64,000 nucleotides of DNA from a virus (taxonomy: Duplodnaviria > Heunggongvirae > Uroviricota > Caudoviricetes). The notes beneath the pieces were generated by a model. It was not told the DNA's origin. It made no database searches and worked only from the letters and a program-made list of their open reading frames with translations. Of this stretch, positions 36,275-50,609 are shown piece by piece (positions within the stretch are counted from its first letter, which is position 1; every line of letters begins with the position of its first letter). The stretch lies in the IMG/VR virus record IMGVR_UViG_3300031993_000032; one strand, given 5' to 3'. Position numbers and translations under genes: made by a program.

Positions 36275-37065
36275 TACCAGTCCCTCACTGAACCGTTAAG
36301 CCATTCATTTGGCGCAACTACGAAGAATACTACTGCGATGATAATAATTAACGAGAAGCATATCCAGAAATACAGTACGCCATGTTCTCTGATGTAGTAA
36401 TCGATCGCACCGTCAAGTGGAACTCCGTCCGCCCACATCGAATCGTTGATTCGGTGGTTGACCGCATTCGTGTACATCGTTCCGGTGTAAGTCAAGTTAC
36501 GACCGTAGTACACGTAGCGTTGGCGATTCGACATCAATGCGTCCCATAGCCCAGTCTTCTTGATGGGAATCGTTTCGATATAATGTTCCCTAGGCAACGC
36601 AGGGAATTCCGAATAATAGAACCGCTTGCCAAGGAAGTCCACATGGTTGACACTGAAATGGTCAGTCTTCATGACGTCCCACGTCCAGTATGTCTCCGTA
36701 TGGCAATGACGGTTCTTTCCCTCGCCAGAGCAGACAGTACGATGGTGCTTTCTGTATTCCTCCAAGTCACGAGTAAGTGTCATGTAGTGTCCGATACCGT
36801 CGTCGGTAACGAACTCGACTGCGCTTACAGTTCCATATGCCAGCATGTGGCCAGCATCTGTTTTGAAGGCATAGTTAAATTGCGTTGAGTCGGAGACATG
36901 TACTGCGTGATAGAACTTCACGTTGTACTCGTCCTGGGCTTGTGCGATTTTGTTGGCAATGATGCAGCCCAAGATAATGGCCAGCAACACGCCGACAAGC
37001 GACACGAAAAACTCACGGACGGTCAGATCCCAGCTACCGCCATCAAATAGCGTACGAGAACTCAT
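36274..37065 (-). CDS. membrane protein (N- and C-terminal TM, Cys-containing extracytoplasmic domain), LemA partner
   Basis: ORF track. TAATG coupling to lemA. Confidence 0.55.
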   Translation of the reverse strand: MSSRTLFDGGSWDLTVREFFVSLVGVLLAIILGCIIANKIAQAQDEYNVKFYHAVHVSDSTQFNYAFKTDAGHMLAYGTVSAVEFVTDDGIGHYMTLTRDLEEYRKHHRTVCSGEGKNRHCHTETYWTWDVMKTDHFSVNHVDFLGKRFYYSEFPALPREHYIETIPIKKTGLWDALMSNRQRYVYYGRNLTYTGTMYTNAVNHRINDSMWADGVPLDGAIDYYIREHGVLYFWICFSLIIIIAVVFFVVAPNEWLNGSVRDW

Positions 37066-37640
37066 TAGTCTTTCTGATCCTTTTTCTTCTTCAAGAGACC
37101 AGTAGGCGCATCAACCGGAGCATTTGCAAACTCCAAGAAGTCGTATTTCTGTGCAACGTAGCCAAGGATAGACAAGCAGAAACGAGCCGGGAATCCACGC
37201 ACGTAAGCATTGTAGTTGCCTACCATGGTGTTGTAGTCGTTTCTGTGCGAAGCGATACGATTTTCGGTCATGGCGAGTTCCGTCATGTACCGGTCGTAAT
37301 TCTCGATAGAACGGAGCTGCGGATAGCGTTCGACCACGCCCTGGATGTATGCGGACGCATTCACGTTGCCCTTGCCGCCTTCCGGTGTACGAGCCTTGGA
37401 GAGTTCGACGATCACTTGCGCTTCGTGCTCGTCATAGCTCATGACAGCTTCGGCCAAGTTGACCAAGAGTCCGGCACGGCGGTTGTATTCCGCATTGAGG
37501 TTGGAATTAGCACGTTCGACGAGCTGTTCCATCTGGATAGCACGGTTCTGGTAGTTCTGCACCATGAAGATGGATGCGACGATAGTGAGTGCAATGACGA
37601 CGACAAATCCGATTGCGCCGAGGATGATTGCTTTTGCCAT
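37065..37640 (-). CDS. lemA: LemA-family protein
   Basis: N-terminal TM, then YN..A..L.......VIVELSKARTPEGG.....TENRIA..R.DYN....YN...R.FP. AAAGGAAAA RBS. Confidence 0.75.
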   Translation of the reverse strand: MAKAIILGAIGFVVVIALTIVASIFMVQNYQNRAIQMEQLVERANSNLNAEYNRRAGLLVNLAEAVMSYDEHEAQVIVELSKARTPEGGKGNVNASAYIQGVVERYPQLRSIENYDRYMTELAMTENRIASHRNDYNTMVGNYNAYVRGFPARFCLSILGYVAQKYDFLEFANAPVDAPTGLLKKKKDQKD

Positions 37641-37658: not shown

Positions 37659-38915
37659 TTATTTGACAGTTTCAATTTTGTAAATAAGTGTGCTGTTACC
37701 CATCTTGATTTCAAGATGGTTAGGGAATGCCGCAGCAATCTTTGCGTATTCAGCTTCCAAGAGTTCGCTGGCCTTGATGCCGAATTCCTTGCCTTGAGCA
37801 ATCCCCATTGACTGCACGGTATCATTGATAGCCTTGCGGTCTGGTTCATTATCCTTCAGATAGCAAGCAGCCGGAAGCTGTTCCAGCCAAGCCCTTTCGC
37901 AATAATAGTCTCTCATGAGAGCAAGCAACAGCTCATACTCACCAGAAACGAAGTTCACCAGAGACGTCCAGTACTTGCCATCGTCCGGATTCCACGCATA
38001 CACGTTACCGTATGAACGGAGCCAGTTCCACAGCTTTCGTTCATCACGTGTAGGAACAAACGCTTCCAGATTGATTTCACTGGCAGCAGTGAAGCAGATT
38101 GCCGGGAACAAGTTATCCTTGGTCAGCAATTCGTCGCATTCGATCAGCTGACACTTGACTTCGTACGGATCCAGACCGTCAAATCCTTCGATATGCCGAA
38201 GCAAGCCGTTCCAAATCAACCTATCAATGAAGTCCGGAGTATCGGCATAGTCCTTCAGTTTCAAGAATTCGGCACGGATACGTTCATTTGACACGTTTTC
38301 CAGTCGTTCTGCATTTGCACTCATGGCGCATGCAGTCTTGTTTTCAATGCTATATTCGAAGTTCACGGCGAAACGAGCGCCACGGATCATGCGGAGCGCA
38401 TCTTCTTCGAATCGCTTGTCAGGATCGCCGACAGCACGGATAATCTTGTTCTTGATATCTTCGACACCGCCATGGTAGTCGATAATTTCGCCGTCCCACG
38501 CAAGGCCGAGCGCATTGATGGTAAAGTCACGTCGAGCTGTATCTTCTTCGAAAGACTCGGTAAGCGTAATAGAGTCTGGATGACGACCGTCGCTGTATTC
38601 ACCGTCAGTACGGAAATGGGTAACCTCGAAATAGATGCCATCCCACCAGACAAGAATGGTGCCGTGTTTTTCGCCGTTGTTGTCGCATGTCTTGAAGTAT
38701 GTCTTCAAGTTATCAAGCGGCATTGACGTGGCGATATCGATGTCATGGATATCCAGCTCGTCGGTCTGGCCGAGCTGGTAACGAACAATGTCACGGACAC
38801 AGCCGCCCACGAGATAAGCCTCAGACTTGTAGGGGCCCAACTCGGTAATCTTCTTGGCTAATGCCAGACCAGCCTTCAACTGATCGTTGTTAATGTCATC
38901 CAAATTGATTTTCAT
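37659..38915 (-). CDS. cca: tRNA nucleotidyltransferase (CCA-adding enzyme / poly(A) polymerase family, head+neck only, no HD domain)
   Basis: GGCVRD, DIHDIDIAT, TARRDFTINAL and FEEDALRMIRGARFA motifs. Leaderless promoter 38923-38951. Confidence 0.8.
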   Translation of the reverse strand: MKINLDDINNDQLKAGLALAKKITELGPYKSEAYLVGGCVRDIVRYQLGQTDELDIHDIDIATSMPLDNLKTYFKTCDNNGEKHGTILVWWDGIYFEVTHFRTDGEYSDGRHPDSITLTESFEEDTARRDFTINALGLAWDGEIIDYHGGVEDIKNKIIRAVGDPDKRFEEDALRMIRGARFAVNFEYSIENKTACAMSANAERLENVSNERIRAEFLKLKDYADTPDFIDRLIWNGLLRHIEGFDGLDPYEVKCQLIECDELLTKDNLFPAICFTAASEINLEAFVPTRDERKLWNWLRSYGNVYAWNPDDGKYWTSLVNFVSGEYELLLALMRDYYCERAWLEQLPAACYLKDNEPDRKAINDTVQSMGIAQGKEFGIKASELLEAEYAKIAAAFPNHLEIKMGNSTLIYKIETVK

Positions 38916-39185: not shown

Positions 39186-39794
39186 TTAACCGTTGCGTTC
39201 CGTCGGATCAACACCGGGAACCGGACACAGCGAACCAGGGATAGTGTGCCAAGTTCCGTGCTGGATGCCGTCGGCGACAACGGTAAACTTTTCAGTCGGC
39301 TTGTTCTCGTTCGATACGAGGAACTCCAACTTACCGTCAACGTTCTTGACGTCGAAGATACGGTAATGAGCGTTGCCACGGATAGTACGGTTCAGCGGCG
39401 ACGCCTTGATGATAAAGGTCTTCTTGTTACGGTAACGGATGAACAGCGACGAACCGTGATGTAGTCCGATGAGGTAGTCTTCATCTTCGGATTCGCTTGC
39501 CTTTGCGTCGTCCTTTTCGATTTCCTTGATACCGTTAGCCAGAGATACATGAAGCTGGTTATCGTTCGGATCCACATAGCCAAAAGTAATCTTGTGCGGA
39601 TTTTCCGTAGACACATAGATACCGACTACGGTCACTTCGGTAGGTTCCGGATATGAATAGAACGTACCGTACAAGCGATACTTGAGTTCCTTCGAGCCCT
39701 TCGTTGCAGCTATGTCAAGAGTGTACTTATGGGCAACACCATGCACCGGGCATTCGATGTGCGGCAAGTCGATAGTTTGTGCTAAATTAATCAT
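39186..39794 (-). CDS. hypothetical protein (202 aa)
   Basis: ORF 39186..39884 trimmed to Met31 (ATGA overlap with the HD gene). Terminator at 39150-39180. Confidence 0.5.
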   Translation of the reverse strand: MINLAQTIDLPHIECPVHGVAHKYTLDIAATKGSKELKYRLYGTFYSYPEPTEVTVVGIYVSTENPHKITFGYVDPNDNQLHVSLANGIKEIEKDDAKASESEDEDYLIGLHHGSSLFIRYRNKKTFIIKASPLNRTIRGNAHYRIFDVKNVDGKLEFLVSNENKPTEKFTVVADGIQHGTWHTIPGSLCPVPGVDPTERNG

Positions 39795-40573
39795 ATGGAA
39801 CCTTTGTCCTTCATGCACCTCAGTGCAGCTTTTAGAATTGAGTCTTTCTTGAGACAGCCGCCGTTGATCTGAATCTTGTGGCAAGTCTCATACAGTTCAA
39901 ACTTCTTGTTGGCGTCAGCGATTTTCTCGACTTCCGGATTAGCAATCATGTCGTTCCATGTCACCAGATGGCTAGGCATCGGATGCGACATGCAGTAGAC
40001 CACGATAGGGTTAGAATTAATCTCTTCCATGTAGTCCATCGCCGGATTGCCTTCGGCATCGATGGTGCTGTTGGAATCAGCGACGGCAAGCTTGAACACA
40101 CGGTTGATCCACGGGTGCGACACGAATGACCAGCAAGCGAACTTCTGTTTCGCTTTCGGCAAGGCGTTCGCTTGCGTATGGTTCTCTACCATCCACAGCA
40201 CGATATCCTTTTCGTGCTTCTTGAATCCGAAACTGTCAAGTACAGCTTCGGCAAGCGGCAATCCGAGCTTTTCGTGACCGGCCATGTTCTTGCCGTTGTT
40301 CTTCGCTAGCGCATCCTTCTTGCCGATATCGTGCAGCAGAGCCGCAGTGACATCCAAGTAGTCGTGCTTGTCCTTGAGGATATTCTCGATGACCATCTTG
40401 GTATGAACCCACACGTCACCTTCATGGTGATAATTAACGTGTTCGCATCCGGCCATGTACTGATCGATGAAACCGAACAGAGGATTATACTTCCGTTCAC
40501 ATTCCAGCCGATCCACCACATCTGGTGCGGTCAATATGCTATGCACATTATTGTAGGTTTCCTCGATCGTCAT
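39791..40573 (-). CDS. HD-domain phosphohydrolase
   Basis: H..HHEGDVWVHT...LLHDIGK motif. AAGAGGA RBS. Confidence 0.7.
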   Translation of the reverse strand: MTIEETYNNVHSILTAPDVVDRLECERKYNPLFGFIDQYMAGCEHVNYHHEGDVWVHTKMVIENILKDKHDYLDVTAALLHDIGKKDALAKNNGKNMAGHEKLGLPLAEAVLDSFGFKKHEKDIVLWMVENHTQANALPKAKQKFACWSFVSHPWINRVFKLAVADSNSTIDAEGNPAMDYMEEINSNPIVVYCMSHPMPSHLVTWNDMIANPEVEKIADANKKFELYETCHKIQINGGCLKKDSILKAALRCMKDKGSI

Positions 40574-40868: not shown

Positions 40869-42215
40869 ATGGCAGTCAAAGTCTCCGAAAAAACGATTGC
40901 GAGGGCAAAGCAGCCTTGTCGCACCGTTTGCAAGCGTCGTGCTGTCGGCGTAACGGCAAACAAGCAGTATCAGCGCAAGAACAAAGACCAGTGGTTCGTC
41001 ACGCATCTCACCAAGACCGATACTTACAAGTTCGGCATGTGTCAAGCGGTCTTCCACAAGCATCCGAACGAACGTGCCTACTGGGAATTCAAGCTCCGTT
41101 CTGATGGCGTCGACCTGACTCCGTACTACGACGAAATCAACAAGGAACTCGATCACCTTTGCACACTCAAGTTTACTGAATGGGAACTCGAAGGCATTCG
41201 CCGTGTTATGCCTTGGCTGTCCGACGACTTCATCGAATGGCTTGCCGACTTCCAGCTCAAGCGCAAGTACATCCACGTCGACTATGATGCTACTCGCAAC
41301 GGCGGTCTCCACATCTGGGCTGAAGGCCCCGCAATCCAAGTTACCTGGTTTGAAATCTATGTTCTGAAGATTATCCAGAACCTCTTCTTCGACGATCTCG
41401 AAATCGACTGGGAAGAATCCAAGAAGACACTCAACGAATCTATCGCAAAGTGGAACGCAGCTCTCCGCCGTGGCGTCAAGTTCACGATCTCTGACTTCGG
41501 TGTCCGCCGTTCCGTGTCCGACGAATGGAACGAATACATGGTTCAGACCATGATCGACTTCTGCCCCGCTTTTGTGGGCACTTCCAACGTGTACCTTGCC
41601 ATCAAGCTAGGCTGCAAGGCTATTGGTACTTTTGCCCATGAAATGTACGCACTGTATCAAGGCATTGACGACATTCCGCTTCACCTTGTGCAGAAGAAAG
41701 TTCTCGAAGACTGGTCTGACGAATTCCGTGGCGACCTCGGTATTGCGCTTTCCGACAACTTTGGCTTCAATGCATTCTTGCGTGATTTCGATAAGTATTA
41801 CGCCAAGCTGTTCGACGGTTGCCGTCACGACTCTGGCGACCCGTATGTCTGGGGCGAAATGCTTATCGCTCACTACACCAAGAACGGCATCAATTCCAAG
41901 AGCAAGGTAGGCTGCTGGTCTGACAGCCTCAACTGCGACCAGTCCATCGCTATCGCCGAACGCTTCCACACTCGTATCAACGTGGCATTCGGTATCGGCG
42001 GCTTCCTCGCTTGCAAGGTGCTCCGCTTCAAGGGTGGCATCAAGCGTGACGCTCTCCGCATGATCATGAAGCTTGTCATGTCCAACGGCAAGTACGCCGT
42101 GAAGCTCTCCGACTCTCCGGGCAAGGTCAACTGTCCTGACCCGAAGGTGATTGAACGTGCGAAGGACGCATACCATTACGAACCAATTGCAGAAAACAAG
42201 GACGCTTTGGATTAA
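40869..42215 (+). CDS. pncB: nicotinate phosphoribosyltransferase
   Basis: Collinear matches to PncB: DTYKFGMCQAVFH, FGVRRSVS...FVGTSNVYLA, GIALSDNFGFNAFLRDF, CRHDSGDPYVWGE, VKLSDSPGKVNCPD. Trimmed to Met22 after AAGGA. Confidence 0.85.
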   Translation: MAVKVSEKTIARAKQPCRTVCKRRAVGVTANKQYQRKNKDQWFVTHLTKTDTYKFGMCQAVFHKHPNERAYWEFKLRSDGVDLTPYYDEINKELDHLCTLKFTEWELEGIRRVMPWLSDDFIEWLADFQLKRKYIHVDYDATRNGGLHIWAEGPAIQVTWFEIYVLKIIQNLFFDDLEIDWEESKKTLNESIAKWNAALRRGVKFTISDFGVRRSVSDEWNEYMVQTMIDFCPAFVGTSNVYLAIKLGCKAIGTFAHEMYALYQGIDDIPLHLVQKKVLEDWSDEFRGDLGIALSDNFGFNAFLRDFDKYYAKLFDGCRHDSGDPYVWGEMLIAHYTKNGINSKSKVGCWSDSLNCDQSIAIAERFHTRINVAFGIGGFLACKVLRFKGGIKRDALRMIMKLVMSNGKYAVKLSDSPGKVNCPDPKVIERAKDAYHYEPIAENKDALD

Positions 42216-42217
42216 AG

Positions 42218-42862
42218 ATGAAAGTACTCGAACTATTTGCTGGCGAACGTTGCATTGGCAAGGCATTTGAACGTGCTGGCCATGAGGTATATTCAGTAGA
42301 CTGGGACAAAATCCATCCAAATATCGACTGGTATACAGATATTTCTAAAGTGACTGCTCAAGATATCCTTGAACGGTTTGGGCATCCGGACGTTATTTGG
42401 ATGAGTCCGGATTGCACAACGTATTCAGTCGCCGCAATTTCTTATCATCGAACCAATGTAAATGGCGAATTGCAGCCAAAAACTGAATATGCAAAATTTT
42501 GTGATGCACTTAATGTGCATTGTAATGAACTGATTAAAGAGTTAAGTCCATCGTTATGGTTTAGGGAAAATCCACGAGGTGGCATGCGCAAAATGTCATT
42601 TGTTGCTGGATTGCCTAGATATACCGTAACATACTGTCAATACGGCGATACGAGGCAAAAGCCAACAGACATTTGGACCAACCATCCGAATCCTAATTTT
42701 TTGCCACCATGTAAACCGGGTTCACCTTGCCATGAAGCGGCCCCTCGTGGCAGCCGTACCGGTACTCAAGGACGTGCTGGCCATGTTATGCGGTCATTAA
42801 TTCCAGATAATCTATGCGATCATATCGTCAAAATTTGTGAAGAATATATGGGTGTCAAATGA
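42218..42862 (+). CDS. minimal C5-cytosine-methyltransferase-like protein (214 aa; motifs I LELFAG, IV SPDC, VI FRENP; no obvious TRD)
   Basis: Motif order read by eye. Sits between pncB and nadD. Confidence 0.4.
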   Translation: MKVLELFAGERCIGKAFERAGHEVYSVDWDKIHPNIDWYTDISKVTAQDILERFGHPDVIWMSPDCTTYSVAAISYHRTNVNGELQPKTEYAKFCDALNVHCNELIKELSPSLWFRENPRGGMRKMSFVAGLPRYTVTYCQYGDTRQKPTDIWTNHPNPNFLPPCKPGSPCHEAAPRGSRTGTQGRAGHVMRSLIPDNLCDHIVKICEEYMGVK

Positions 42863-43284
42863 AGAAGGTGTACATCTACGGCGGAGCATTCGACCCGGTA
42901 ACGACTGCGCACACCGCCATTATTACCGAACTGCTCAGCCGACTCAAGAAGGAACCTGATTCCCTCTTGTACATCTTGGTTAGTGACAACGATACGAAGA
43001 ATTACAAGGTCGAATGCGAAGACCGCATGGCGATGATCGTCCATACGGTCAATTCGCTCCACAGCTTGTATTCTGACACGTCCGATTCTCCGGCTGCATA
43101 CAATCAAGGCGAACCGTCCGAAATCTTCCACCGTGTGAAGATTGTCGACGAAGTGAGCCGTACAGCTGAAGCCCTGCAGAATCTCCGCAAGGATACCAGC
43201 TTGACTGATGCTACATTCACGCTGGTTCTCGGCACTGACGAATGGCAGTCGCTGTTGACCAAACAATGGGCTGTTAACAGCTAA
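42859..43284 (+). CDS. nadD: NadD-like nicotinate/nicotinamide mononucleotide adenylyltransferase, short (141 aa; lacks the C-terminal third of canonical NadD)
   Basis: GGAFDPVTTAH nucleotidyltransferase motif. LVLGTDEWQSL block. ATGA overlap with the upstream gene. Confidence 0.55.
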   Translation: MKKVYIYGGAFDPVTTAHTAIITELLSRLKKEPDSLLYILVSDNDTKNYKVECEDRMAMIVHTVNSLHSLYSDTSDSPAAYNQGEPSEIFHRVKIVDEVSRTAEALQNLRKDTSLTDATFTLVLGTDEWQSLLTKQWAVNS

Positions 43285-43439
43285 CCTAAATTCTACCGAA
43301 TTCTACTCAAATCTACTTAGAATTATAATCAATTTGATAAGATTTTATGTTGACAATCGGCATAAAATTTTGTACATGGTTATAAACTTGTGATATAAAG
43401 GTTCGATGAATTAGTGCAATTCTTCATTGAATCCAAGTA

Positions 43440-45260
43440 AGAAAACATTTATGATGGCTCGTTTGGAGTTGAATTGCACAATAAATTCCGAACGAGCCAT
43501 GTCTGTATTGTATGAGTAAGCACTGTTGGACATTGAAGGATAGGTACGAGTCGCATTTCTCCGCTGCGTTCTATCCTATGTATTTGTCCGACACCAAGCG
43601 TGCCGAAATCATCCATCGTGCCGAGGAAATCCGTTCTGTACGGAACGATATATCCGACGTGTTCTTCTCTGATATGCTCGGCTTCCAAGACATGAGCAAG
43701 TTTGATGCATACAAGTATTTCATTCCCATATTTAATACAAGACTATGTAGTCATTACTTGAAGACGGCAATCGAGGATGTGTGGAAGGCATACCAGTTAA
43801 GATTTGGTGCCATCCGAAAGAAGATTGAGTTCGTCAAGGTAGAAGAGCTTGTGCCGTCCTTCTACAAGATCAATTCTTATGGGCATAAAAAGGGCGAACT
43901 AAAATCCATAGAACGGCATACCAAGAAGACTGAACTATCGAAAGTACTGACCTGGCTTTCCAGATATGGAAAGGACGAATCCGTTTACTGGCTAGAATCC
44001 GTTATTCCTAATGCAGAAGAAACCAAGCAAAAGTTTTACCGCACTATACTGGATAAGATAAGGAAGTTCGGATTCGACCGCCTCATGCGGTTGGCCTTAT
44101 TCCGTAGGAAAGCTGTATATGCGAAGTATATCGCACGAGGGAAGATTACCTTTGAATCTCTCACATTCTCTGGCCGCAGTCGTATTAAGCGTCCTATCGT
44201 GGATGCCAGAAGGAACGATACCGGCAAGTTCGACTACTTCATCGAGATTTCTTGGGACTGGTTCAACCGGGCATACCATGGGCCTAGTGATCATACGCTG
44301 TGCATCCCGATCAAGTACAACAAGGCATATCACAAATCATTACAAAGATACTGCAATGGACCGGATACGTCCTATACAATCGTAATTCGCGGCAAAGACA
44401 TCCACGTAGTTCTTGCCCGTGACGGCTACCGTTACAAGAGCGATGAAAAAATTACCGAGGAGAATACGGTTGGTATAGACGTCAATTCCAAGCACAATAT
44501 GTTCGCCTTGAGTAACGGGGAGTTCATTCCGCATGACGAGGAAATGATTGCTGAACTAGAAGACGAACTGCTGAAAATTGATACCAAGCAGAAGAACTAC
44601 GATGCTAGGTTCAATGACGCTGAGGAGCATGACGCATTCAAGATTTCACGTAAGGACAAGAAACGAATAGAAGCAATCACAGTGAAGCTGAACGCATCCA
44701 ACAAGCGTAGAATAGCTGCAATGTGCAAGGATCTTGCTGAACGTGGATTCAAGCACATCGTGATGGAGAACCTTACCGGGTTTCAAGGAAGCAAACTCAA
44801 TGCCGATGACAAGAAAGGATTTAACCTCGGTAGGTTGCATCTACGTATAGGATTGTCCTCGTTAAAAGACGATGTAGAACATATATCGGCACATTATGGA
44901 CTGGGATTTTCACTCGTCCAGCCAGAATATACCTCGAAGATGTGCCCGGAATGCGGTGGAATAGATGACCGTAACCGTCAGACTCAGGAAGATTTCAAGT
45001 GTGTGTACTGCTTGCATACAGACAATGCAGACCACAACAGTGCGATTAACATCAAGTTCCGCCTTACCTCGACCGTGTTAAGAGGGAACTTGCTCGAAAG
45101 GGTAGGGGATAGCGGATATAGGTACTTTCAGCCAAAGAGCTTGTTCAGGTGGCAAGTAAGGAAGTGCCTAGAAAAATGTCGTTGCAATGGTCTGTTCAAA
45201 CGGACTATAGGAAATCACGAAAGACTTACCATAAGTAAGTTTGAGTAGATTTCAGTCAAC
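43440..45260 (+). mobile_element. second, distinct IS605-family tnpB element (approximate ends); left-end inverted repeat ATGGCTCGTT/AACGAGCCAT at 43452-43500
   Basis: TnpB ORF plus the left-end hairpin. The right end must lie within a few nt of the tnpB stop, because pncA homology resumes at about 45265. Confidence 0.45.
43512..45248 (+). CDS. tnpB: large TnpB-like protein (578 aa; RuvC-I VGIDVN, RuvC-II MENL, RuvC-III NADHNSAINI, zinc finger CPECGG...CVYC)
   Basis: Motifs read by eye. Confidence 0.8.
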   Translation: MSKHCWTLKDRYESHFSAAFYPMYLSDTKRAEIIHRAEEIRSVRNDISDVFFSDMLGFQDMSKFDAYKYFIPIFNTRLCSHYLKTAIEDVWKAYQLRFGAIRKKIEFVKVEELVPSFYKINSYGHKKGELKSIERHTKKTELSKVLTWLSRYGKDESVYWLESVIPNAEETKQKFYRTILDKIRKFGFDRLMRLALFRRKAVYAKYIARGKITFESLTFSGRSRIKRPIVDARRNDTGKFDYFIEISWDWFNRAYHGPSDHTLCIPIKYNKAYHKSLQRYCNGPDTSYTIVIRGKDIHVVLARDGYRYKSDEKITEENTVGIDVNSKHNMFALSNGEFIPHDEEMIAELEDELLKIDTKQKNYDARFNDAEEHDAFKISRKDKKRIEAITVKLNASNKRRIAAMCKDLAERGFKHIVMENLTGFQGSKLNADDKKGFNLGRLHLRIGLSSLKDDVEHISAHYGLGFSLVQPEYTSKMCPECGGIDDRNRQTQEDFKCVYCLHTDNADHNSAINIKFRLTSTVLRGNLLERVGDSGYRYFQPKSLFRWQVRKCLEKCRCNGLFKRTIGNHERLTISKFE

Positions 45261-45264
45261 GGCG

Positions 45265-45543
45265 AAGTACTTCCTCAGCGACGACGCTTTCAACGCCGAT
45301 GGTTCTCTCAAGAGCCAGGAAGAGCTCGCAAAGCTCGGCAAGGAACGCATTGGCCGTATCCGCCTCGTTGGTACTTGCACCGACATCTGCGTCATTTCCA
45401 ACGCAATGATCCTCCGTGCGATGTTCAAGGATACTCCTATCGAAATCGTGGAATACGCTTGTGCCGCTACTCCTGGAGCACAGGATGCAGCAATCCTCGT
45501 CATGGAACGTTGCGGATTCACGATTATCCGTGAAGCTGCCTAA
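45265..45543 (+). pseudogene. pncA: C-terminal fragment (about 90 aa) of a nicotinamidase/isochorismatase (PncA-like), 5'-truncated at the tnpB element
   Basis: RIRLVGTCTDICVISNA...VEYACAA matches the PncA catalytic-Cys region. The ORF begins inside the tnpB 3' end. No N-terminal half was found anywhere upstream. Confidence 0.5.
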
Positions 45544-45596
45544 TATTTGATTGGGATGGAAAGAAGGCTGGCCGATTGGCCAGCCTTTCTGCGTAT

Positions 45597-45944
45597 TTAA
45601 ACAAGCGATTTCTTCTTGTACAAGTTATATGCTTCAAGAACGGCTCGCCGCAGCGTCTTGTTCTGGATTGAAGTCGCTACGGCTTCTTGAAAGCTACCCG
45701 GTTCAACTTCAGTAAACTCGAACTGGTTGTTGAGGTCGTCCAATATGGCATGCTTGACAGTGATTTCGTCACCAGATGCCGTATCGCCGTCGGCTGACGT
45801 ATACATGAGCTGTCCGATTTCGCTAAGCGACAAAGTCCCCATCGGGACATCGTAGATCTTGATGTCGACGGCGTCGCCATTTGGCTCGGCAACTAGGCCA
45901 GTTTTGTCAATCATTCGGTTCGCTGTATCTAGCAATTTGTCCAT
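45597..45944 (-). CDS. hypothetical acidic protein
   Basis: ORF track. GAGGGGG RBS. Terminator at 45555-45590. Confidence 0.55.
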   Translation of the reverse strand: MDKLLDTANRMIDKTGLVAEPNGDAVDIKIYDVPMGTLSLSEIGQLMYTSADGDTASGDEITVKHAILDDLNNQFEFTEVEPGSFQEAVATSIQNKTLRRAVLEAYNLYKKKSLV

Positions 45945-45956
45945 ATGGCCCCCTCA

Positions 45957-47246
45957 TTAGTCCTCATCAAGGATTTTGTCAGTGTCCTGGTGTCGGTTAG
46001 ATTCGCTGGTTCCCTTTTTCTTTCGTCTGCGATCGAGCCAATCCTTTGCATCTTTAATAAAGTGAGACGATTCTATGTTCTTTTTCGGGTTCGCCGTCTG
46101 GTTCAATACACCTTCTTGGTTCCAGTTATTGATTGTATTGTTCAACCAGTTAAAATATCCCTTATCTTCTGGTTTATCGTTTGGCTTACTATTAGACGTA
46201 TTATCATTTGATTGATTATCGTCTGGTTTCTTTTTTGGACCCCAGTTCATATCGTCATCGTCTGGATCGTTCGACTCCTTAGACTTCTTCTCATCAGTCT
46301 TTGTATACAGGTCTACATAAGACGCCACCAAGTCTTGCACCTTTTCCTGGACATCATTGTCATAGACATCCGGAAAGTCTTCCATTGCCTTGTCGTAGTA
46401 CTCATCTACGAGTGCATCCTTACCTTCGTCGTCAAGTTCATCGGCATTTCTCTGGCAGTACAGCTGCAAGTCGTCCTTGTAGTTATCCTGGAAGTTCTTG
46501 CGGATCTTCCGGTACAGTGCCTTCGGGTCATCCTCGTCGGACGGAGTGTCTGGATTGTTCTTCTGGTCCTGCGGATTCTGCTGCTGCTGGTCCTGCGGAT
46601 TGTTCTCGTCCGGATTGCCCTGCTTATTCTGTTCTTCCTGGGCGTTCTGCTTCTCTTCCTTTGCCTTCTGTCTTGCTTCTTTTTGCTGCTGTTTCTTCAG
46701 TTGTTTCTCTTCATAATCCGGATCTAATACAGAATCCAGCAATTTACTAAGTTGCTTGTCAATGATATCAGATCGTGCCGTACTATAGGGCGAGTTTTTC
46801 TGTGCGGCAAAAGATCTTAAATCTTGTATCCCCACTAGTTTTTTAGCCATATTACCACTAGTTTTATGGTTAATGATAGACGATAAGTTAATAGAAATAT
46901 GCTTGTCATCCGTCATTTTAGCTGGCGGTTCCGTATCCAATAAAGGATCATTCATTACAATATAATTACCAGACTTGCCTAGCAGGAATTTGTGAGAATA
47001 CGTTTCTGGCCAATACGTAGCGCAGAATAACTTATAATTTAGTTTTTCTGACTTCTCCAAGTTTTCTCTGATCTTATCTGTAATCGTGCTAGACTTGAAC
47101 TTATCATTGGTTGCATCTGTCTGCGTAGCACCGGACGTGCCAGCAGCCGCCTTATCGGCTCCAGTATCCTCCGGGGTCGCCTTCTTATTTGCTTCCATCA
47201 GGGAATTGAAGGTTCTCAGGTCTTCGTCATAGTCAAAAAACTGCAT
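45957..47246 (-). CDS. low-complexity Q/N/D/K-rich protein (429 aa), possibly a virion or ejected protein
   Basis: ORF track. Candidate promoter TTGACA-N17-ATATGA overlaps the glf stop. Confidence 0.5.
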   Translation of the reverse strand: MQFFDYDEDLRTFNSLMEANKKATPEDTGADKAAAGTSGATQTDATNDKFKSSTITDKIRENLEKSEKLNYKLFCATYWPETYSHKFLLGKSGNYIVMNDPLLDTEPPAKMTDDKHISINLSSIINHKTSGNMAKKLVGIQDLRSFAAQKNSPYSTARSDIIDKQLSKLLDSVLDPDYEEKQLKKQQQKEARQKAKEEKQNAQEEQNKQGNPDENNPQDQQQQNPQDQKNNPDTPSDEDDPKALYRKIRKNFQDNYKDDLQLYCQRNADELDDEGKDALVDEYYDKAMEDFPDVYDNDVQEKVQDLVASYVDLYTKTDEKKSKESNDPDDDDMNWGPKKKPDDNQSNDNTSNSKPNDKPEDKGYFNWLNNTINNWNQEGVLNQTANPKKNIESSHFIKDAKDWLDRRRKKKGTSESNRHQDTDKILDED

Positions 47247-47280
47247 ACGATCTCGCTTTTGGTCATATGCAGTTTATACG

Positions 47281-48456
47281 TTATTTGTCAATGTAACGCC
47301 GTCCGATCTGCCTTGCGGCCAGGATACAATCATCCATGTCCATGTAGCTGTATGTGCCAAGTCGACCGACAAACTGAACATTAGTCGGCTGAGATTCATG
47401 GTGCTGTACGTATTTGGCATACAGCGCCTGATTAGCCTCGTCGTTGACCGGATAGTACGGTTCCATGCCCTTCTTCCATTCAGAGGAATACTCGTAGCTC
47501 ACGATAGAGCCCTTAGTACCGTCATGCGGGCAGAACCACTTGTGCTCAATAGAGCGAGTATATGGTACATCGGTCGACGTGTAATTGCATACCGGGCAGC
47601 CTTGTACATTATCCGACTTGAATTCCTTTTCCTTGAACTTGACCGAACGGTACTTGAGCGCACCGAACTTGTATCCATAAAACTCATCGATACCGCCAGA
47701 ATAAAAGACCCTTTTACCCTTGATACCAAGTTCAGCAAGCTTCTGATATGGCGTGTCCAGCATAATATCCAAGCGGATGTCATCATATTTGTTTACTTCA
47801 TTGAACATATTCTCAATGACGCTTGTATAACCGTCGTCTGGCATCAGCTGGTACGTATCATTGAAATAATTATTGTCGAACGTAAAACGCACGGGGAGAC
47901 GCTTGATGATGCTAGCCGGAAGGTCTTCGCACTTCCGACCCCACTGCTTCTCTGTGTAGCCCTTGACGAGTGTATTGAAGATGGTCGTGCCGACCATTGA
48001 GATGGCTTGTTCGGCAAGGTTCTTCGGTTCCTTGATACCAGCTGCGTCGATTTCCTTCTGGATAGCAGCCTTGATTTCATCCGGTGTCGTAAGTCCTGGG
48101 AACAACTGCACGAACGTATTCATGTTGAATGGCATGTTGTACATTCGTTTCGTTCCGTCTGGCTGTGTAAACACGGCGATCGGCTGGTTGATGAACGGAC
48201 TCCATTCTCCGAACTGCTGGATATAGGACGCAGCAAAGTCATTGGACGTATGGAAAATATGGGCACCGTACTTATGTACGTCAATTCCGTTCTTCTTTTC
48301 GGTGTAGCAGTTACCGCCTATATGGTTACGACGGTCGATGACGAGCATCTTGATATTAGCATCCCAGCGGCTATTGCTTGCGATGGTTTCTGCGATGGTA
48401 GCGTTGGTTAGACCAGCGCCGACAAATATAAAGTCGTAGTTCTTTATGTATTTCAT
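47281..48456 (-). CDS. glf: UDP-galactopyranose mutase
   Basis: FIFVGAGLTNATIAE..LVIDRRNHIGGNCYTE..GIDVHKYGAHIFHT matches Glf. ORF trimmed to Met112. TATATT 6 nt upstream of the ATG. Confidence 0.85.
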   Translation of the reverse strand: MKYIKNYDFIFVGAGLTNATIAETIASNSRWDANIKMLVIDRRNHIGGNCYTEKKNGIDVHKYGAHIFHTSNDFAASYIQQFGEWSPFINQPIAVFTQPDGTKRMYNMPFNMNTFVQLFPGLTTPDEIKAAIQKEIDAAGIKEPKNLAEQAISMVGTTIFNTLVKGYTEKQWGRKCEDLPASIIKRLPVRFTFDNNYFNDTYQLMPDDGYTSVIENMFNEVNKYDDIRLDIMLDTPYQKLAELGIKGKRVFYSGGIDEFYGYKFGALKYRSVKFKEKEFKSDNVQGCPVCNYTSTDVPYTRSIEHKWFCPHDGTKGSIVSYEYSSEWKKGMEPYYPVNDEANQALYAKYVQHHESQPTNVQFVGRLGTYSYMDMDDCILAARQIGRRYIDK

Positions 48457-48507
48457 GCAGTTAATATAGCAAAAAGAACTATAAACGGCTATAAAAGGAG
48501 GTTCGAC

Positions 48508-49482
48508 ATGACTCCAGAAACAATCGCTAGCCGTGAGGCCAAGTTTGCCAATACCTTGACGGATTCGTCCGGCAAGAAGTTCACCGCTGGAAACCCGATC
48601 GATATCGGTGACGGCTTCAGCATCATTCCCATCAATCCTGGGTTCAAGACCTATTTCTACCAGACACGTACGGTAAAGACGCAGATATGCCTCCATTTCA
48701 CCGTAGGCGTGATTACAGGCGACGTTGCGTCCTTGACAAAGGAGAACAACCACATGTCGGTTCCGTACGTCGTAGACCGCTGTGGACACATCTACAGGCT
48801 TTTCGATGACGCCTTCTGGTCATACCACCTCGGATCCACCGCTATTGGCGGAAATGCAGTAATGTCAAAGCAGTCCATCGGTATCGAGATATCGAACTAC
48901 GGGCCCCTTAAGGACAAGGAACAGAACGGAAACTATCTCGACGCATACGGAAACCTATACACCAAGGATCCGGTAAACGTCGACTTCGTTTCGTATCGTG
49001 GATATAACTGCTATGCAAAGATGACGTCGGTGCAGAAACAAGCTATTGCTCACTTGCTTAAGTATCTGTCGGAGAAGCACGATATTCCGCTTACCTTCAA
49101 GGAACTGATCGGAGACGTGTTTGAATCTGCAGAACAAGCAGTCGCCTACAAAGGCATCTTCTGTCACTCGAACGTGAGGAAGGACAAGTACGACATGCCT
49201 CCGGAATTCACCTTGCAAATCAAGGACGCTCTTGATGAAATGAACAAGGTTGAGGAACCAGTTGCTGTAGAACCAGAACCTACCGAGGAGCAGGAACCAG
49301 TCGTGGAAGATCCTCAACCGGAGACCGATTTCGTCAAGCGTGATTTCGTCGTCAAGGAAACCGAAGACGGCGACCCTTACGTCGCCGAAGTGGAATCAAG
49401 TGAACCAGCCGAGGAGCAAGTCCATTTGACATGGTTCGACAATTTTGTGAACTGGATCAAGTCACTGTTTAAGTCTCGGTAG
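48508..49482 (+). CDS. N-acetylmuramoyl-L-alanine amidase (Amidase_2/PGRP, T7-lysozyme-like) with acidic C-terminal extension; probable lysin
   Basis: ICLHFTVG, SIGIEISNYG and CHSNV...DMPPEF motifs. AAAGGAGG RBS. Confidence 0.75.
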   Translation: MTPETIASREAKFANTLTDSSGKKFTAGNPIDIGDGFSIIPINPGFKTYFYQTRTVKTQICLHFTVGVITGDVASLTKENNHMSVPYVVDRCGHIYRLFDDAFWSYHLGSTAIGGNAVMSKQSIGIEISNYGPLKDKEQNGNYLDAYGNLYTKDPVNVDFVSYRGYNCYAKMTSVQKQAIAHLLKYLSEKHDIPLTFKELIGDVFESAEQAVAYKGIFCHSNVRKDKYDMPPEFTLQIKDALDEMNKVEEPVAVEPEPTEEQEPVVEDPQPETDFVKRDFVVKETEDGDPYVAEVESSEPAEEQVHLTWFDNFVNWIKSLFKSR

Positions 49483-50359
49483 GCTCTTTTTCGTTCGCAT
49501 ACAGCACAGCATCTTCGCCACGGAAAATAACGTCCGTGGCGTTCTTGATATCGTCGATACCAGCGGCTGGACTGTTTAACGGCATGTAAATAGGATCCAG
49601 CTGATATGGAAGACTATTGCTCCACGAGGTGGCCAGTTTCACGTAGTATTCCTGGATTTCCGTACGGATACATGTATCAGGAATCTTCGCCGCCACTTCT
49701 GGTTTCAGCTTGCTGCGGTCGATGTCTACCGGCTTTTCCACGTTGACACGGTGATAGAACGTACCGTAGCGAGCTTCCATAGGATAGCCCTTCCAGTCGC
49801 TACCGATGATTTTGAGCTTTTCGTCCGTGTTCAGACCGTCGCATTTCTTGTGGCCGACCTTGTATCGAGCTGCAGAGCTTACGGCATTACGGACAGCATC
49901 ACGGTAACGGAAACGCAGCGCATTGACTGCTTCCCATTCATCCGGCACGTTGAATACACGGCAGTCGAACAGCGGTAAGCCAACCGTTGGAGTGTCTGGA
50001 TCGATGAACTTACTGAACCAATAGGTAGCGGTCGACGCAATGACGCTGTTCATCTTGGACAACTTACCACTCAAGAAAGCTTCCGTAGTCGGCTTGAACA
50101 GCAGAGTGATTTCATCGGACTGCACATAGGTCAAGATAGGGTCAAACGTCTCTGTCAGCTTCTTGGCGGTCTCTTGCATAGCCTTGACGAAACGATTGTC
50201 GAACGGCTTGTGTATCCGCTTGGTATAGGTATGGAACGCCTTGCCGTCCACACGAGCGATGAACGGCAGCGATGGGTCAATTTTGTGTTCGGTAAACTGG
50301 TGTTCGTATGCCTTGATACGGTCGCCAAGCTTCATAGTATCTGATTGTATTCTTTCCAT
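49469..50359 (-). CDS. thg1: Thg1-like tRNA-His guanylyltransferase (3'-5' nucleotidyltransferase) with about 90-aa C-terminal extension
   Basis: KLGDRIKAYE...FIARVDGKAFHTYTKRIHKPFDNRF...YVQSDEITLLF matches the Thg1 core. ATG 7 nt after promoter 50367-50395. Confidence 0.7.
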   Translation of the reverse strand: MERIQSDTMKLGDRIKAYEHQFTEHKIDPSLPFIARVDGKAFHTYTKRIHKPFDNRFVKAMQETAKKLTETFDPILTYVQSDEITLLFKPTTEAFLSGKLSKMNSVIASTATYWFSKFIDPDTPTVGLPLFDCRVFNVPDEWEAVNALRFRYRDAVRNAVSSAARYKVGHKKCDGLNTDEKLKIIGSDWKGYPMEARYGTFYHRVNVEKPVDIDRSKLKPEVAAKIPDTCIRTEIQEYYVKLATSWSNSLPYQLDPIYMPLNSPAAGIDDIKNATDVIFRGEDAVLYANEKEPTET

Positions 50360-50570
50360 ACTTGACAATATAGCAATTAAGAGTAAAATTGTCTACGATA
50401 AAAGCGAAATCCATCGCATTTGCGATGGATTGTCCTTTATGCTTGATTTTCCGTGAGTATTTCTTCTTGTCAAGAACCAGCCGAGTGCGAAGTGTCGCAC
50501 CGTTGCCAGTCCCGGCAATCCTTGCGGCCCGTTGGGTTCTCGTTTCCTTGATGTGTTCTATATTGCTCAT
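50277..50570 (-). CDS. small basic protein (97 aa) whose reading frame runs through the thg1 promoter and the first 90 nt of thg1
   Basis: ORF track. Promoter TTGACA-N16-TATATT at 50580-50607 with the ATG 9 nt downstream. Confidence 0.4.
   Translation of the reverse strand: MSNIEHIKETRTQRAARIAGTGNGATLRTRLVLDKKKYSRKIKHKGQSIANAMDFAFIVDNFTLNCYIVKYGKNTIRYYEAWRPYQGIRTPVYRTQN
50367..50395 (-). promoter_or_regulatory. sigma-70-type promoter TAGACA-N17-TATATT, leaderless
   Basis: Read directly from the sequence. Confidence 0.55.
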
Positions 50571-50609
50571 AATGTACCAAATATAGGAATTTAACTCTAT
50601 GTGTCAAGA

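Follow-up and report, generated by a model that had tools for sequence, protein, structure and literature searches.

Probable remains of a jumbo-phage NAD-salvage operon disrupted by an IS607-like TnpB element

Preiss-Handler clusters (pncB-nadD-nadE) have been published for gastrointestinal jumbo phages such as 'Kuafu_71', in a study that also mentions phage pncA (Microbiome 2024, PMC11662467). Other phages restore NAD by different routes. NARP2 of KVP40 comprises NadV/Nampt and Nmnat, runs along the amidated route from Nam through NMN to NAD, is self-sufficient to NAD, and its ability to defeat Thoeris and DSR2 has been demonstrated (Osterman et al., bioRxiv 10.1101/2024.02.11.579819). NARP3 pairs the PnuC transporter with NadR to take in and convert nicotinamide riboside, without PncA, PncB or NadD (Sci Adv 2026, PMC13464706). 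The initial annotation of the locus described here had proposed a third NARP variant; as a novelty this proposal falls, given that Preiss-Handler jumbo-phage clusters are published (PMC11662467) and the name NARP3 is taken (PMC13464706), and the idea of a new variant pertains only to the intact relatives considered below.

The window is a 64,000-nucleotide stretch of a virus record (IMGVR_UViG_3300031993_000032), in which an ORF check found all five features named by the initial annotation to be real and correctly placed. The locus contains the following:

40869..42215, + strand: pncB, nicotinate phosphoribosyltransferase, 448 aa, intact (Pfam, NCBIfam)
42218..42862, + strand: compact C5 DNA-cytosine methyltransferase gene, 214 aa (phrog_757, AlphaFold/Foldseek)
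42859..43269, + strand: 5' nadD-Nudix remnant, first 137 codons (alignment with the L108 fusion)
43270..45262, + strand: non-autonomous IS607-like TnpB/ωRNA element, 1,993 bp (homology limits, junction alignment)
43289..43319, + strand: three subterminal direct repeats AAWTCTAC at 10-bp spacing (43289, 43299, 43309; pattern search)
43402..43502, + strand: structured 5' leader of tnpB, two hairpins with pairing loops (alifold and pair counts, 11 copies)
43512..45248, + strand: tnpB, RNA-guided RuvC nuclease homologue, 578 aa (Pfam, NCBIfam, PDB sequence matches)
45058..45262, + strand: ωRNA scaffold extending from the 3' part of tnpB to the right end of the element, final letters ...CAACGG (covariation)
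45262..45543, + strand: 3' pncA remnant, 93 codons and stop, equal to L108 PncA residues 103-195 (alignment with L108)
45263..45282, + strand: predicted ωRNA guide, right flank within the pncA remnant (position, IS607 TnpB model)

Set against over 16 related jumbo-phage contigs, this locus probably represents (at roughly 85%) the remains of a NAD-salvage operon that is conserved in related jumbo phages, pncB -> nadD-Nudix -> pncA. In the ancestral arrangement, pncB, a gene for a NadD-like adenylyltransferase-Nudix fusion (~390 aa) and pncA (~196 aa) form a tight operon; its intact carriers (L001/L111, L004, L005, L108-L113, L118, L119, L123-L129 and L131) have neither the methyltransferase nor TnpB at the operon. 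Relatives sharing the short nadD and lacking pncA would have counted against the initial annotation; the opposite was found, the relatives carrying full-length nadD-Nudix and pncA. The lineage in the window differs from this operon twice, by an added C5 methyltransferase gene and by a TnpB element replacing ~1.08-1.13 kb, and synteny with the intact relatives breaks at 42226-42857 and ~43258/43270-45260.

The pncB product matched Pfam NAPRTase (3.6e-55) and NAPRTase_N (9.8e-29), exceeded both NCBIfam nicotinate phosphoribosyltransferase cut-offs (PRK05321, 399.1 > 379; TIGR01514, 334.9 > 269.55) and is 97.5% identical in amino acids to that of L108, bearing out the earlier call of a genuine pncB. 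In the relatives, the NadD domain has S. aureus NadD (2H29) as its best PDB match and NadD models as its NCBIfam matches, while full-length PncA matched Pfam Isochorismatase (4.7e-15) and the nicotinamidases 1ILW, 3S2S, 3O90 and 3PL1 in the PDB. The Nudix box of the fused domain is perfect, and the best PDB matches of that domain are NadM-Nudix proteins of Francisella and Synechocystis (2QJT, 2QJO). The fusion resembles these bifunctional enzymes (Synechocystis slr0787, 2QJO; Francisella, 2QJT) in joining an adenylyltransferase to a C-terminal ADPR-pyrophosphatase-type Nudix domain, but its N-terminal half is of the NadD type. The KVP40 adenylyltransferase is likewise fused to a Nudix domain.

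We infer the enzyme specificities from family resemblance, the full-length NadD domain (65.6 against 112.45) and PncA (23.9 against 174) both lying under their NCBIfam equivalog cut-offs. In the intact relatives PncA would deamidate nicotinamide to nicotinate, PncB would convert nicotinate and PRPP to NaMN, and the NadD domain would adenylate NaMN to NaAD. NadE was not found among the scanned window ORFs of roughly at least 240 aa, so that even the intact operon would end at NaAD, and the step to NAD would need host NadE. The fused Nudix domain probably cleaves ADP-ribose to AMP and ribose-5-phosphate; if it does act on ADP-ribose, the intact operon would use up both products of NADase defence effectors.

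Like the published Preiss-Handler clusters, these are jumbo-phage contigs, apparently from ruminant or other animal gut (judged by record names and PMC11662467), with clustered pncB and a nadD-type adenylyltransferase. In contrast to those clusters, the conserved unit here is pncB, the NadD-Nudix fusion and pncA, nadE is missing both next to the unit and from the scanned window ORFs, and only one of the three genes survives whole in this window. The word Nudix has 0 occurrences in PMC11662467; the NadD-Nudix fusion is therefore not described in that paper. With NARP2 the operon shares phage-encoded classical salvage enzymes, a phosphoribosyltransferase and an adenylyltransferase; unlike NARP2, it would follow the deamidated route (PncA and a true PncB) and need NadE, and its adenylyltransferase is NadD-like rather than NadM-like.

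Both genes flanking the element are truncated. The nadD-like ORF (42859-43284, 141 aa) matched CTP_transf_like (1.9e-7) and NadD models, all under cut-off, and its last four codons, with the stop at 43284, belong to the IS. The remnant shares 92% identity with the N-terminal part of the 389-aa L108 fusion and keeps GGAFDPVTTAH; missing are SSTKAR (the SSTxxR motif, at 187-192 of L108) and the Nudix box (at 280-302 of L108), the whole Nudix domain being lost. On the other side, the 100-aa ORF at 45241-45543 has its TTG start within the right end of the IS and covers only positions 107-171 of the 175-position isochorismatase profile (1.3e-5). Here the remnant is 96.8% identical to the L108 PncA C-terminus and retains the TDICV Cys; with residues 1-102 removed, D11, D49/H51/H66 and K94 (catalytic Asp and Lys, metal ligands) are gone.

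That the cluster works as it stands, a 141-aa minimal NadD and a 100-aa nicotinamidase forming a new PncA/PncB-based NARP, is highly improbable. Both remnants are indeed ORFs free of internal stops that still match the right superfamilies, but the relatives all carry the ~390-aa and ~196-aa proteins, the remnants have lost the NadD SSTxxR motif along with the Nudix domain and, in PncA, the catalytic Asp and Lys as well as the metal ligands, and IS sequence supplies both the final four residues of the first ORF and the TTG start of the second. The minimal NadD offered by the initial annotation was thus rejected, as it equals the first 137 residues of the ~390-aa fusion. With NadD and PncA cut short and the Nudix domain gone, both proteins are predicted to be dead, and PncB is, on this evidence, the only one of the operon's three enzymes left intact. 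Since the relatives keep whole genes, the lineage is best read as a natural knockout of nicotinamide-to-NAD recycling genes and not as a new minimal pathway. Comparison with the intact relatives thus agrees with the earlier suggestions that these are truncated remnants, that the TnpB element removed the missing nadD and pncA parts, and that this lineage has an inactivated pathway.

The methyltransferase gene forms a 632-bp insertion from the pncB stop to the nadD start, and is absent from all 16 intact-operon relatives (junction comparison with L001 and L108-L113). Its match to PF00145 is weak (0.0029; 17.5 against a cut-off of 22), that to phrog_757 'DNA methyltransferase' strong (1.3e-41); the AlphaFold (AF2) model (pLDDT 89) had M.HaeIII, DNMT3 and M.HhaI as top Foldseek matches (E~4e-9, prob 1.0), and motifs I (FAG...G), IV (PDC) and VI (ENP) were recognised by eye. 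It thus shares the C5 DNA-cytosine methyltransferase fold with M.HaeIII, M.HhaI, the DNMT3 catalytic domain and phrog_757, but differs from typical members in having 214 aa only, with a ~35-residue segment at the usual position of the target-recognition domain. The family has more than 8000 homologues, which sources name DNA cytosine methyltransferase. Given its absence from the relatives and this very large family, its earlier listing as a cluster member is not upheld; it is an unrelated insertion outside the NAD pathway, placed seamlessly between pncB and nadD.

In the other change to this lineage, a TnpB-only element with IS607-type ends bridges a GG of nadD and a GG of pncA, and the ~1.1 kb that lay between is lost. 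The insertion previously put at 1.7 kb is real, that length being the ORF; the mobile element spans 1,993 bp (43270-45262). Among 17 other viral loci compared, DNA homology ended on the left at 43262-43297 in the 12 loci reaching that end, and on the right at 45255-45266 in all but one (L012, 45217) of the 15 loci that extend that far. The ends themselves were set by junction alignment, and one contig of 1,999 bp (L133) stops at the element's own boundaries. The element stands in place of 1,079 bp (against L108) or 1,128 bp (against L001) of nadD-Nudix 3' and pncA 5' sequence. Its junctions read ...GG/G...CAACGG/ (slashes marking the junctions), with GG at both, the two target sites in L108-L110 read GGCTGGG, that is, TGGG, and the copies occupy at least 10 distinct GG-flanked insertion sites. 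As none of the relatives turned up with one clean insertion at either GG site, we can only infer the route of the deletion: copies of the element inserted at both TGGG sites may have recombined unequally, or transposase may have mediated an adjacent deletion.

As described in the literature, IS607 elements have GG at their termini and in the target, favouring (G)GG/TGGG; they carry direct repeats and one imperfect inverted repeat in subterminal position, and their ωRNA ends ...CGG (PMC6188088; bioRxiv 10.1101/2023.11.20.567912). The element resembles IS607-family TnpB/ωRNA elements (C. botulinum IStron, Žedaveinytė et al.; IS607, IS1535, Chen et al., eLife 2018) in its GG ends and target with a TGGG-like site, in having phased subterminal direct repeats plus an imperfect inverted repeat, likewise subterminal (I1; 43295-43319 with 45232-45256, 25 nt, 84% complementary, its left arm overlapping the direct repeats) where terminal inverted repeats are absent, and in a 3'-end ωRNA ending ...CGG with a TnpB of intact RuvC triad. 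It differs in the absence of tnpA and intron, in a 578-aa TnpB with a long N-terminal part, far under the IS607_TnpB cut-off, in its kissing-loop 5' leader and in a lineage essentially confined to phage contigs. Neither the surroundings of the copies nor the scanned window ORFs nor a left-end motif search yielded a serine-recombinase TnpA, so IS607 membership is assigned by end architecture only.

Most TnpB genes are associated with IS200/IS605, two canonical IS605-type TnpBs lie elsewhere in the window, and IStrons are known for IS605 and IS607 (bioRxiv 10.1101/2023.11.20.567912). An IS200/IS605-type (Y1 transposase) element, or a group I intron IStron spliced from mRNA with gene function kept, is nevertheless very unlikely: an Rfam search (E<=1) gave no match, including to group I introns, the left end has just 242 nt, the junctions are GG with no TA-rich TAM, and the subterminal repeats occur without IS605 end hairpins. 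Moreover, 1.1 kb of coding sequence is absent, so splicing could restore neither gene. The multicopy element does break assemblies, but a chimera in which the repeat collapses two distant regions is the least credible explanation of all. At least four metagenome samples (ERZ27257203, ERZ27256849, JGI 3300028887 and JGI 3300037512) share one identical broken allele, which is therefore not an assembly artefact; both junctions are identical in the contigs of four samples from different assemblers (99.97-100% identity over 10-16 kb), and the flanks are syntenic with the relatives on each side.

TnpB matched Pfam Cas12f1-like_TNB (2.4e-13) and Cas12f and TnpB sequences in the PDB, and scored under the NCBIfam cut-offs (guided_TnpB, 90.4 bits against 100; IS607_TnpB, 24.9 against 350). 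In a column-by-column check D323 and D507 were identical in 13 of 13 copies, and E419 is invariant across protein alignments, leaving the RuvC triad intact; dN/dS of 0.08-0.10 indicates strong purifying selection. Eighteen of the 65 predicted ωRNA pairs show compensatory changes, and 98.3% of cells are paired against 36-46% in slid controls (observed values reached by 0 of 500 shuffles; MFE z = -3.7). From the invariant triad, purifying selection and conserved ωRNA, the element looks functional. A read-through guide is predicted to match the relatives' intact pncA beside a TGGG motif; these read TGGG and then CGAAGTACTTCCTCGGCGAC, with one mismatch to the predicted guide in L109 and L110 and two in L108, and the L001 site was also read from the alignment.

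The TnpB/ωRNA might act mainly as a phage-versus-phage homing drive, its guide directing cutting of related phages' intact pncA in co-infection (predicted target TGGG-CGAAGTACTTCCTC) and repair from this genome copying element and deletion into the rival phage. We regard this as unlikely, though less so than the other alternatives. The mismatches fall at guide positions 8 and 15, TGGG is the TAM of an IS607 TnpB (bioRxiv 10.1101/2023.11.20.567912), and the selection on TnpB and the conserved ωRNA would fit. So would its distribution, with one match (a MAG) in 185,579 bacterial and archaeal genomes and abundance on phage-sized contigs. Sample 3300037512 holds both intact and broken alleles, and L142 carries an identical methyltransferase-to-downstream block beside a 90%-identical pncB, a recombination breakpoint, although L142 is possibly a chimeric assembly. 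The many GG-flanked sites and the contig breaks at element ends point instead to ordinary transposition, and the left flanks of the copies show only NGG/G.

In the tnpB leader, 43415-43423 pairs with 43473-43481 in a loop-loop contact whose central 4 nt are hypervariable and always compensated; across 11 copies all nine pairs are 100% paired, and four show two-sided changes only. The same kissing-loop leader could be made out by eye in L154, whose protein identity is 65%.

The NAD locus in this window is what remains of a jumbo-phage NAD salvage cluster of a known kind, split by a methyltransferase gene and inactivated by an IS. Whole-locus alignments with related viral and metagenome contigs showed synteny on both sides and two discontinuities, at 42226-42857 and at 43270-45262, the latter a 1,993-bp TnpB/ωRNA unit (hereafter the element). 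The ORFs named in the initial annotation were all found in place, and the locus comprises the following features.

40869-42215: pncB, with both NAPRTase domains (PF04095 and PF17767)
42226-42857: methyltransferase insertion, a 214-aa gene fitted exactly between the stop codon of pncB and the start codon of nadD
42859-43284: 141-aa NadD-like ORF with weak matches to cytidylyltransferase-like and NadD models
43512-45248: tnpB, 578 aa, with a Cas12f1-like TNB domain (PF07282, 50.4 against a cut-off of 26.3)
45058-45262: predicted ωRNA scaffold, the last ~205 nt of the element, overlapping the tnpB 3' end and ending at the element right end
45241-45543: 100-aa ORF, a pncA remnant covering isochorismatase profile positions 107-171 of 175 only

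The pncB gene is genuine, as initially annotated. Besides carrying both domains, its product exceeds the curated NCBIfam cut-offs (PRK05321, 399.1 against 379; TIGR01514, 334.9 against 269.55) and is therefore a true PncB; an identity as NadV/Nampt, which would make the locus NARP2, was rejected because these nicotinate phosphoribosyltransferase cut-offs were exceeded. The phage PncBs bear a basic N-terminal extension of ~45 residues (residues 1-45 at 40869-41000 in the window, and also in the related loci L001 and L002), and the bacterial PncB profile match starts only at residues 38-47, leaving this extension outside.

A PncB scan of viral contigs recovered five jumbo-phage contigs of 203-355 kb. 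In one of them, L001 (PncB 94% identical), pncB is directly followed by a 398-aa fusion gene and then by a ~196-aa isochorismatase-family gene. The N-terminus of the 398-aa protein corresponds to the window's 141-aa ORF and its C-terminus is a Nudix domain, while the C-terminus of the ~196-aa protein corresponds to the window's 100-aa ORF. A further 25 loci came from a metagenome scan, and in 16 of them all three genes are present in this order; the closest, L108, has a PncB identity of 97.5%, and none of these 16 intact operons contains a methyltransferase or TnpB gene. The gene order is kept even in L004 and L005, where PncB identity is just 56-57%, and no NAD synthetase gene adjoins the operon in these two loci. 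The comparison with related phages lacking the insertion, recommended in the initial annotation, thus yielded full-length nadD-Nudix and pncA genes. Among phage records, pncB is annotated in 13 of 50,697, a few huge cultured and uncultured phages.

Measured against these relatives, both genes flanking the element are broken. The 141-aa ORF retains the GxFxPx(H/T)xxH motif as GGAFDPVTTAH (residues 8-18), with G-G-A-F-D-P, T15 and H18 invariant in seven homologues. The NadD part ends at residue 137, ahead of both the Nudix domain and SSTKAR, the ISSTxxR-type ATP-binding motif found at residues 187-192 in L108, and does not amount to a full-length Rossmann domain; the suggestion that it might be a new minimal NadD was accordingly abandoned. 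The window fragment (43.8) and the full-length L001 protein (65.6) both score below the TIGR00482 cut-off of 112.45. The best solved match of the fusion's NadD-type N-terminal domain is S. aureus NadD (2H29); the Nudix domain at the fusion's C-terminus shows a GX5EX7REUXEEXGU box without deviation, and among its closest solved relatives are the Nudix portions of NadM-Nudix from Francisella and Synechocystis. Full-length homologues of the fusion number ~76 and lie almost exclusively on large metagenome contigs, which reach 470 kb; a tblastn search with the 141-aa ORF found a single weak match, to a Staphylococcus phage. The fusion gene is also mosaic: four intact relatives (L108-L110 and L113) are only ~70% identical to L001 and L112 in NadD-Nudix, with the first ~140 residues ~91% identical and the flanking PncB and PncA about 90-98% identical.

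The full-length L001 PncA homologue scores 56.6 against Pfam Isochorismatase (gathering threshold 27), and the window fragment falls below it at 25.8. The best solved relatives of these homologues are nicotinamidases/pyrazinamidases (1ILW, 3S2S, 3O90, 3PL1 and 2H0R), and all catalytic and metal residues are present in L108 (D11, D49/H51/H66, K94 and C145). The remnant begins at residue 103, in agreement with the proposal that the tnpB element had removed the 5' part of pncA, and of the Asp-Lys-Cys triad and metal site it retains the Cys (TDICV) alone. With NadD cut at residue 137 and PncA starting at residue 103, both ORFs are therefore pseudogene fragments and, judged from the predicted products, PncB is the sole intact enzyme of the operon in the window. 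The lesson for annotation is that the short 'NadD' and 'isochorismatase' ORFs of the window should be read as pseudogene fragments.

In the intact operon, to go by family knowledge, PncA would convert Nam to NA, PncB would convert NA to NaMN and the NadD domain would convert NaMN to NaAD, with host NadE completing the route; the Nudix domain plausibly hydrolyses ADP-ribose. The intact operon may hence be a deamidating NAD-reconstitution route that also disposes of ADP-ribose. The proposed PncA/PncB/NadD cluster holds for the relatives; in the window two of its three genes are truncated, and no NadE was found among the scanned ORFs of roughly 240 aa or more, so that the complete NAD route expected of a NARP is absent there. 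NARP1 and NARP2 were described by Osterman et al., NARP2 being the amidated route of Nampt and Nmnat (bioRxiv 10.1101/2024.02.11.579819), and NARP3 consists of PnuC and NadR (PMC13464706); PncA, PncB and NadD are mentioned in neither paper. In gastrointestinal jumbo phages, gene sets for the whole salvage or Preiss-Handler route have been reported, a pncB-nadD-nadE cluster among them, and a phage pncA is mentioned in the same study (Microbiome 2024, PMC11662467). Phage Preiss-Handler genes have therefore already been published, and the idea of a third NARP variant could not be upheld, that place being taken by PnuC and NadR. Overall, the initial observation was confirmed and its interpretation supported in part. 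An operon of PncB, NadD-Nudix and PncA would take both NADase products, nicotinamide and ADP-ribose, and in this predicted use of both it would be a variant beyond those covered in the papers cited here. Megablast of the region against deposited phage genomes gave no match.

The first discontinuity concerns a different function. The 214-aa protein is a member of phrog_757 'DNA methyltransferase' (1.3e-41), in a family of more than 8000 members named DNA cytosine methyltransferase by the sources. Its Pfam score is under the cut-off, and a profile search against PDB sequences gave matches to M.HhaI only, which were sub-significant; the matter was settled by a fold search. The AlphaFold model (pLDDT 89, pTM 0.87) has a class-I MTase fold and matches M.HaeIII, DNMT3A/B and M.HhaI over ~190 residues in Foldseek (E 4e-9 to 1e-7, prob 1.0), and SPDC (motif IV) and ENPRG (motif VI) are invariant or nearly so in 21 homologues. 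As modelled, the product is a C5 DNA methyltransferase of compact size whose target-recognition segment is very short; it has no connection with NAD metabolism. The order pncB-MTase-nadD likewise occurs in a more distant relative, L135 (86% nt identity).

The second discontinuity was delimited by comparison with other copies. The stretch 43270-45262 takes the place of 1,079 bp in L108-L110 and of 1,128 bp in L001. TnpBs 71-88% identical were found at 17 other viral loci, at full length where the locus spans the whole gene, and in the loci reaching the ends DNA homology to the window begins at about 43262-43297 and ends at about 45255-45266. The aligned ends read flank...GG/GTTAYCAACAGCTAACCTAAAATCTACC ... 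GAGTAGATTTCAGTCAACGG/flank (slashes marking the junctions), and the flanks are unrelated across at least 10 insertion sites. A 1,999-bp metagenome contig begins and ends at the element ends, as is expected of a multicopy repeat. GG occurs at both termini (GG/G left, CAACGG/ right) except in the two most divergent copies, of which L014 ends in ...CAACGA with an ambiguous left junction and L015 has a right end that fails to align. The target GG is present at both matching sites of L108-L110 and L001, and in L108-L110 both junction sites are GGCTGGG. The left end contains three AAWTCTAC repeats (AAATCTAC) at 43289, 43299 and 43309, spaced by 10 bp and lying 20-47 bp from the terminus, and the right end one inverted copy at 45245; there is also a 25-nt inverted repeat (84% complementary) whose arms lie 26 nt inside the left terminus and 6 nt inside the right.

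IS607-family ends are characterized by a GG at either terminus and in the target, with a (G)GG/TGGG preference, by subterminal repeats in phase and by an imperfect inverted repeat whose arms differ in distance from the ends (PMC6188088; bioRxiv 10.1101/2023.11.20.567912). The element has the terminal and target GG, the subterminal direct repeats and the imperfect inverted repeat. The ωRNA scaffold of IS607 TnpB ends in ...UCGG and its TAM is TGGG (bioRxiv 10.1101/2023.11.20.567912); the window element's right end reads ...AACGG. No serine-recombinase TnpA was found in the element or beside any copy, and in every copy with a recovered left end about 230-240 bp separate this end from tnpB. With tnpB as the sole gene in 1,993 bp, the element can be no more than a non-autonomous derivative. 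TnpB also scores below the NCBIfam cut-offs (guided_TnpB, 90.4 against 100; IS607_TnpB, 24.9 against 350); given the missing recombinase and the low IS607_TnpB score, the element is called non-autonomous with IS607-type ends and not a certified IS607. A search of viral contigs with the left-end motif for an autonomous partner returned only copies already known, and in bacterial and archaeal genomes a first scan gave nothing and a second gave one MAG contig without tnpA. A group I intron or IStron was rejected, Rfam being empty on the element (no match in 42800-45800 at E<=1), and the window contains no CRISPR arrays, whether near the large TnpB or elsewhere.

The left end at 43270-43281 (G[C/T]T[G/A]T[T/C]AACAGC) resembles nadD just past the target GG in L001 and L112 (GTGAACAGC; ~11760-11775 in L001), a likeness that could be due to chance or to the recombinase's target preference. 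A tnpB-less miniature of the element was seen ~1.2 kb upstream of pncB in the metagenome locus L129 (positions 1-150, Ga0129306_1002112). It joins the left end (element positions 11-51) to the ωRNA region (1796-1892), its left junction is again ...CTCTGG/G, and it is truncated by the contig start.

Since the element's flanks lie 1.08 kb apart in the relatives, sequence was deleted here, and the event differs from a simple insertion. The two junctions fall at GG/TGGG sites separated by about 1.1 kb, and the element is complete at either end. LE-specific bases directly follow the GG, which therefore places the crossover at GG; microhomology was rejected as the cause, the window's nadD allele reading CAATGGG against GGCTGGG at both L108-L110 sites. 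Three routes would be consistent with the GG junctions and complete ends. Unequal homologous recombination could have occurred between two same-orientation copies, one at each site, either within a single genome or between two genomes in a co-infection; recombinase-mediated adjacent deletion could have run from one element end to a nearby GG; and repair after a TnpB cut would be less likely than either. No relative with a single insertion at the nadD or pncA GG site was found, nor were clean empty sites for the other element copies among the fetched loci, where L015 and L009 are rearranged relative to each other.

The broken allele is neither an artefact nor brand new. Contigs from ERZ27257203, ERZ27256849, JGI 3300028887 and JGI 3300037512 encode precisely the window's 141-aa product and TnpB, and over 10-16 kb spanning both junctions they match the window at 99.97-100% identity; JGI 3300037512 also contains L001, the intact-allele phage. 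Two broken-allele contigs from ERZ27256849 (L142 and L146), compared with window 41085-51284, match it at 100% from the start of the methyltransferase gene up to where the comparison stops, and diverge from it by 9.8% in pncB; this sharp change at the pncB/MTase border indicates a recombination breakpoint, or else a chimeric assembly. The locus is a natural knockout of NadD-Nudix and PncA, assembled independently from at least four metagenome samples and accompanied by intact sister lineages. Comparing the two offers a test of whether deamidating NAD salvage pays off under Thoeris, DSR and SIR2-HerA or is dispensable.

TnpB itself appears well maintained. Its RuvC triad is kept (no variation at D323 or D507 in 13 copies, nor at E419 in the alignments) and dN/dS among copies is 0.08-0.10; the structure prediction (pLDDT 41) was too low for a fold search. 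The 3' end of the element folds into 65 pairs, 18 of them with compensatory changes, and 98.3% of cells are paired against 36-46% with partners slid; none of 500 shuffles matched the observed values (MFE z = -3.7). This structured end is, on covariation and position, the expected ωRNA. The positional guide directly 3' of the right end is CGAAGTACTTCCTCAGCGAC, and the predicted guide sequence to accompany the 45058-45262 scaffold is CGAAGTACTTCCTCAG. In intact relatives TGGG is followed by the 20-nt guide with one mismatch (position 15) in L109, L110 and L001 and two (positions 8 and 15) in L108. By this position and TGGG context the flank is a putative guide, which, on an unlikely homing reading, would be aimed at the intact pncA of sister phages and would act as a gene drive turning rivals to the NAD-salvage-deficient allele.

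Two conserved hairpins occupy the tnpB 5' leader (43402-43502) in the window and in other copies (L006-L022, L133 and L154), their loops pairing 43415-43423 with 43473-43481. The central 4 nt of this kissing loop vary by copy (GCAA, CGAG, GGAT, GAGA, GGCT, AGCG and CGTG), every change being compensated on the partner loop, and no Rfam family matches the leader. A tie between the core and the insertion site was rejected, there being no correlation, with L006 and L009 sharing a core on different flanks. The hypervariable, compensated loop may be a copy-specific control device.

Database searching gave 735 TnpB matches; among the best 120, identity is never below 73% and length is about 555-611 aa, mostly 577-579 aa. 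No close relative was found in deposited phage genomes (identity 24% or less), and across 185,579 bacterial and archaeal species genomes the lineage occurs on one MAG contig only (Clostridia, buffalo caecum, 65% identity). The occurrence of TnpB genes in phages as such has been described before (PMC12607003). That a phage-restricted TnpB lineage homes by RNA guidance among co-infecting jumbo phages, with the pncA drive and the loop control, we consider unlikely. Such an abundant and almost phage-only lineage may serve as a model for how OMEGA elements persist in viral genomes, and it could yield nucleases with a G-rich TAM. Two more canonical TnpB genes, at 24474-25790 (+) and 56160-57482 (-), encode 438 and 440 aa with HTH_OrfB_IS605, OrfB_IS605 and TNB domains, so the 64-kb window holds three TnpB-family genes.

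The NAD locus is flanked on the minus strand by genes for a CCA-adding-enzyme-like nucleotidyltransferase (37659-38915), an HD-domain protein (39791-40573) and a Thg1-like tRNA-His guanylyltransferase (49469-50368), together a possible tRNA-repair set. A candidate anti-restriction protein is encoded at 20074-21036 (minus strand), in which an ArdC-N-like domain is joined to a zincin metallopeptidase (MPTase-PolyVal, 5e-31). Also encoded on the minus strand are an SPFH/flotillin-like protein (34223-35848), a LemA-family protein (37065-37640), a UDP-galactopyranose mutase (47281-48789) and a sigma-70-type factor (58152-58892).
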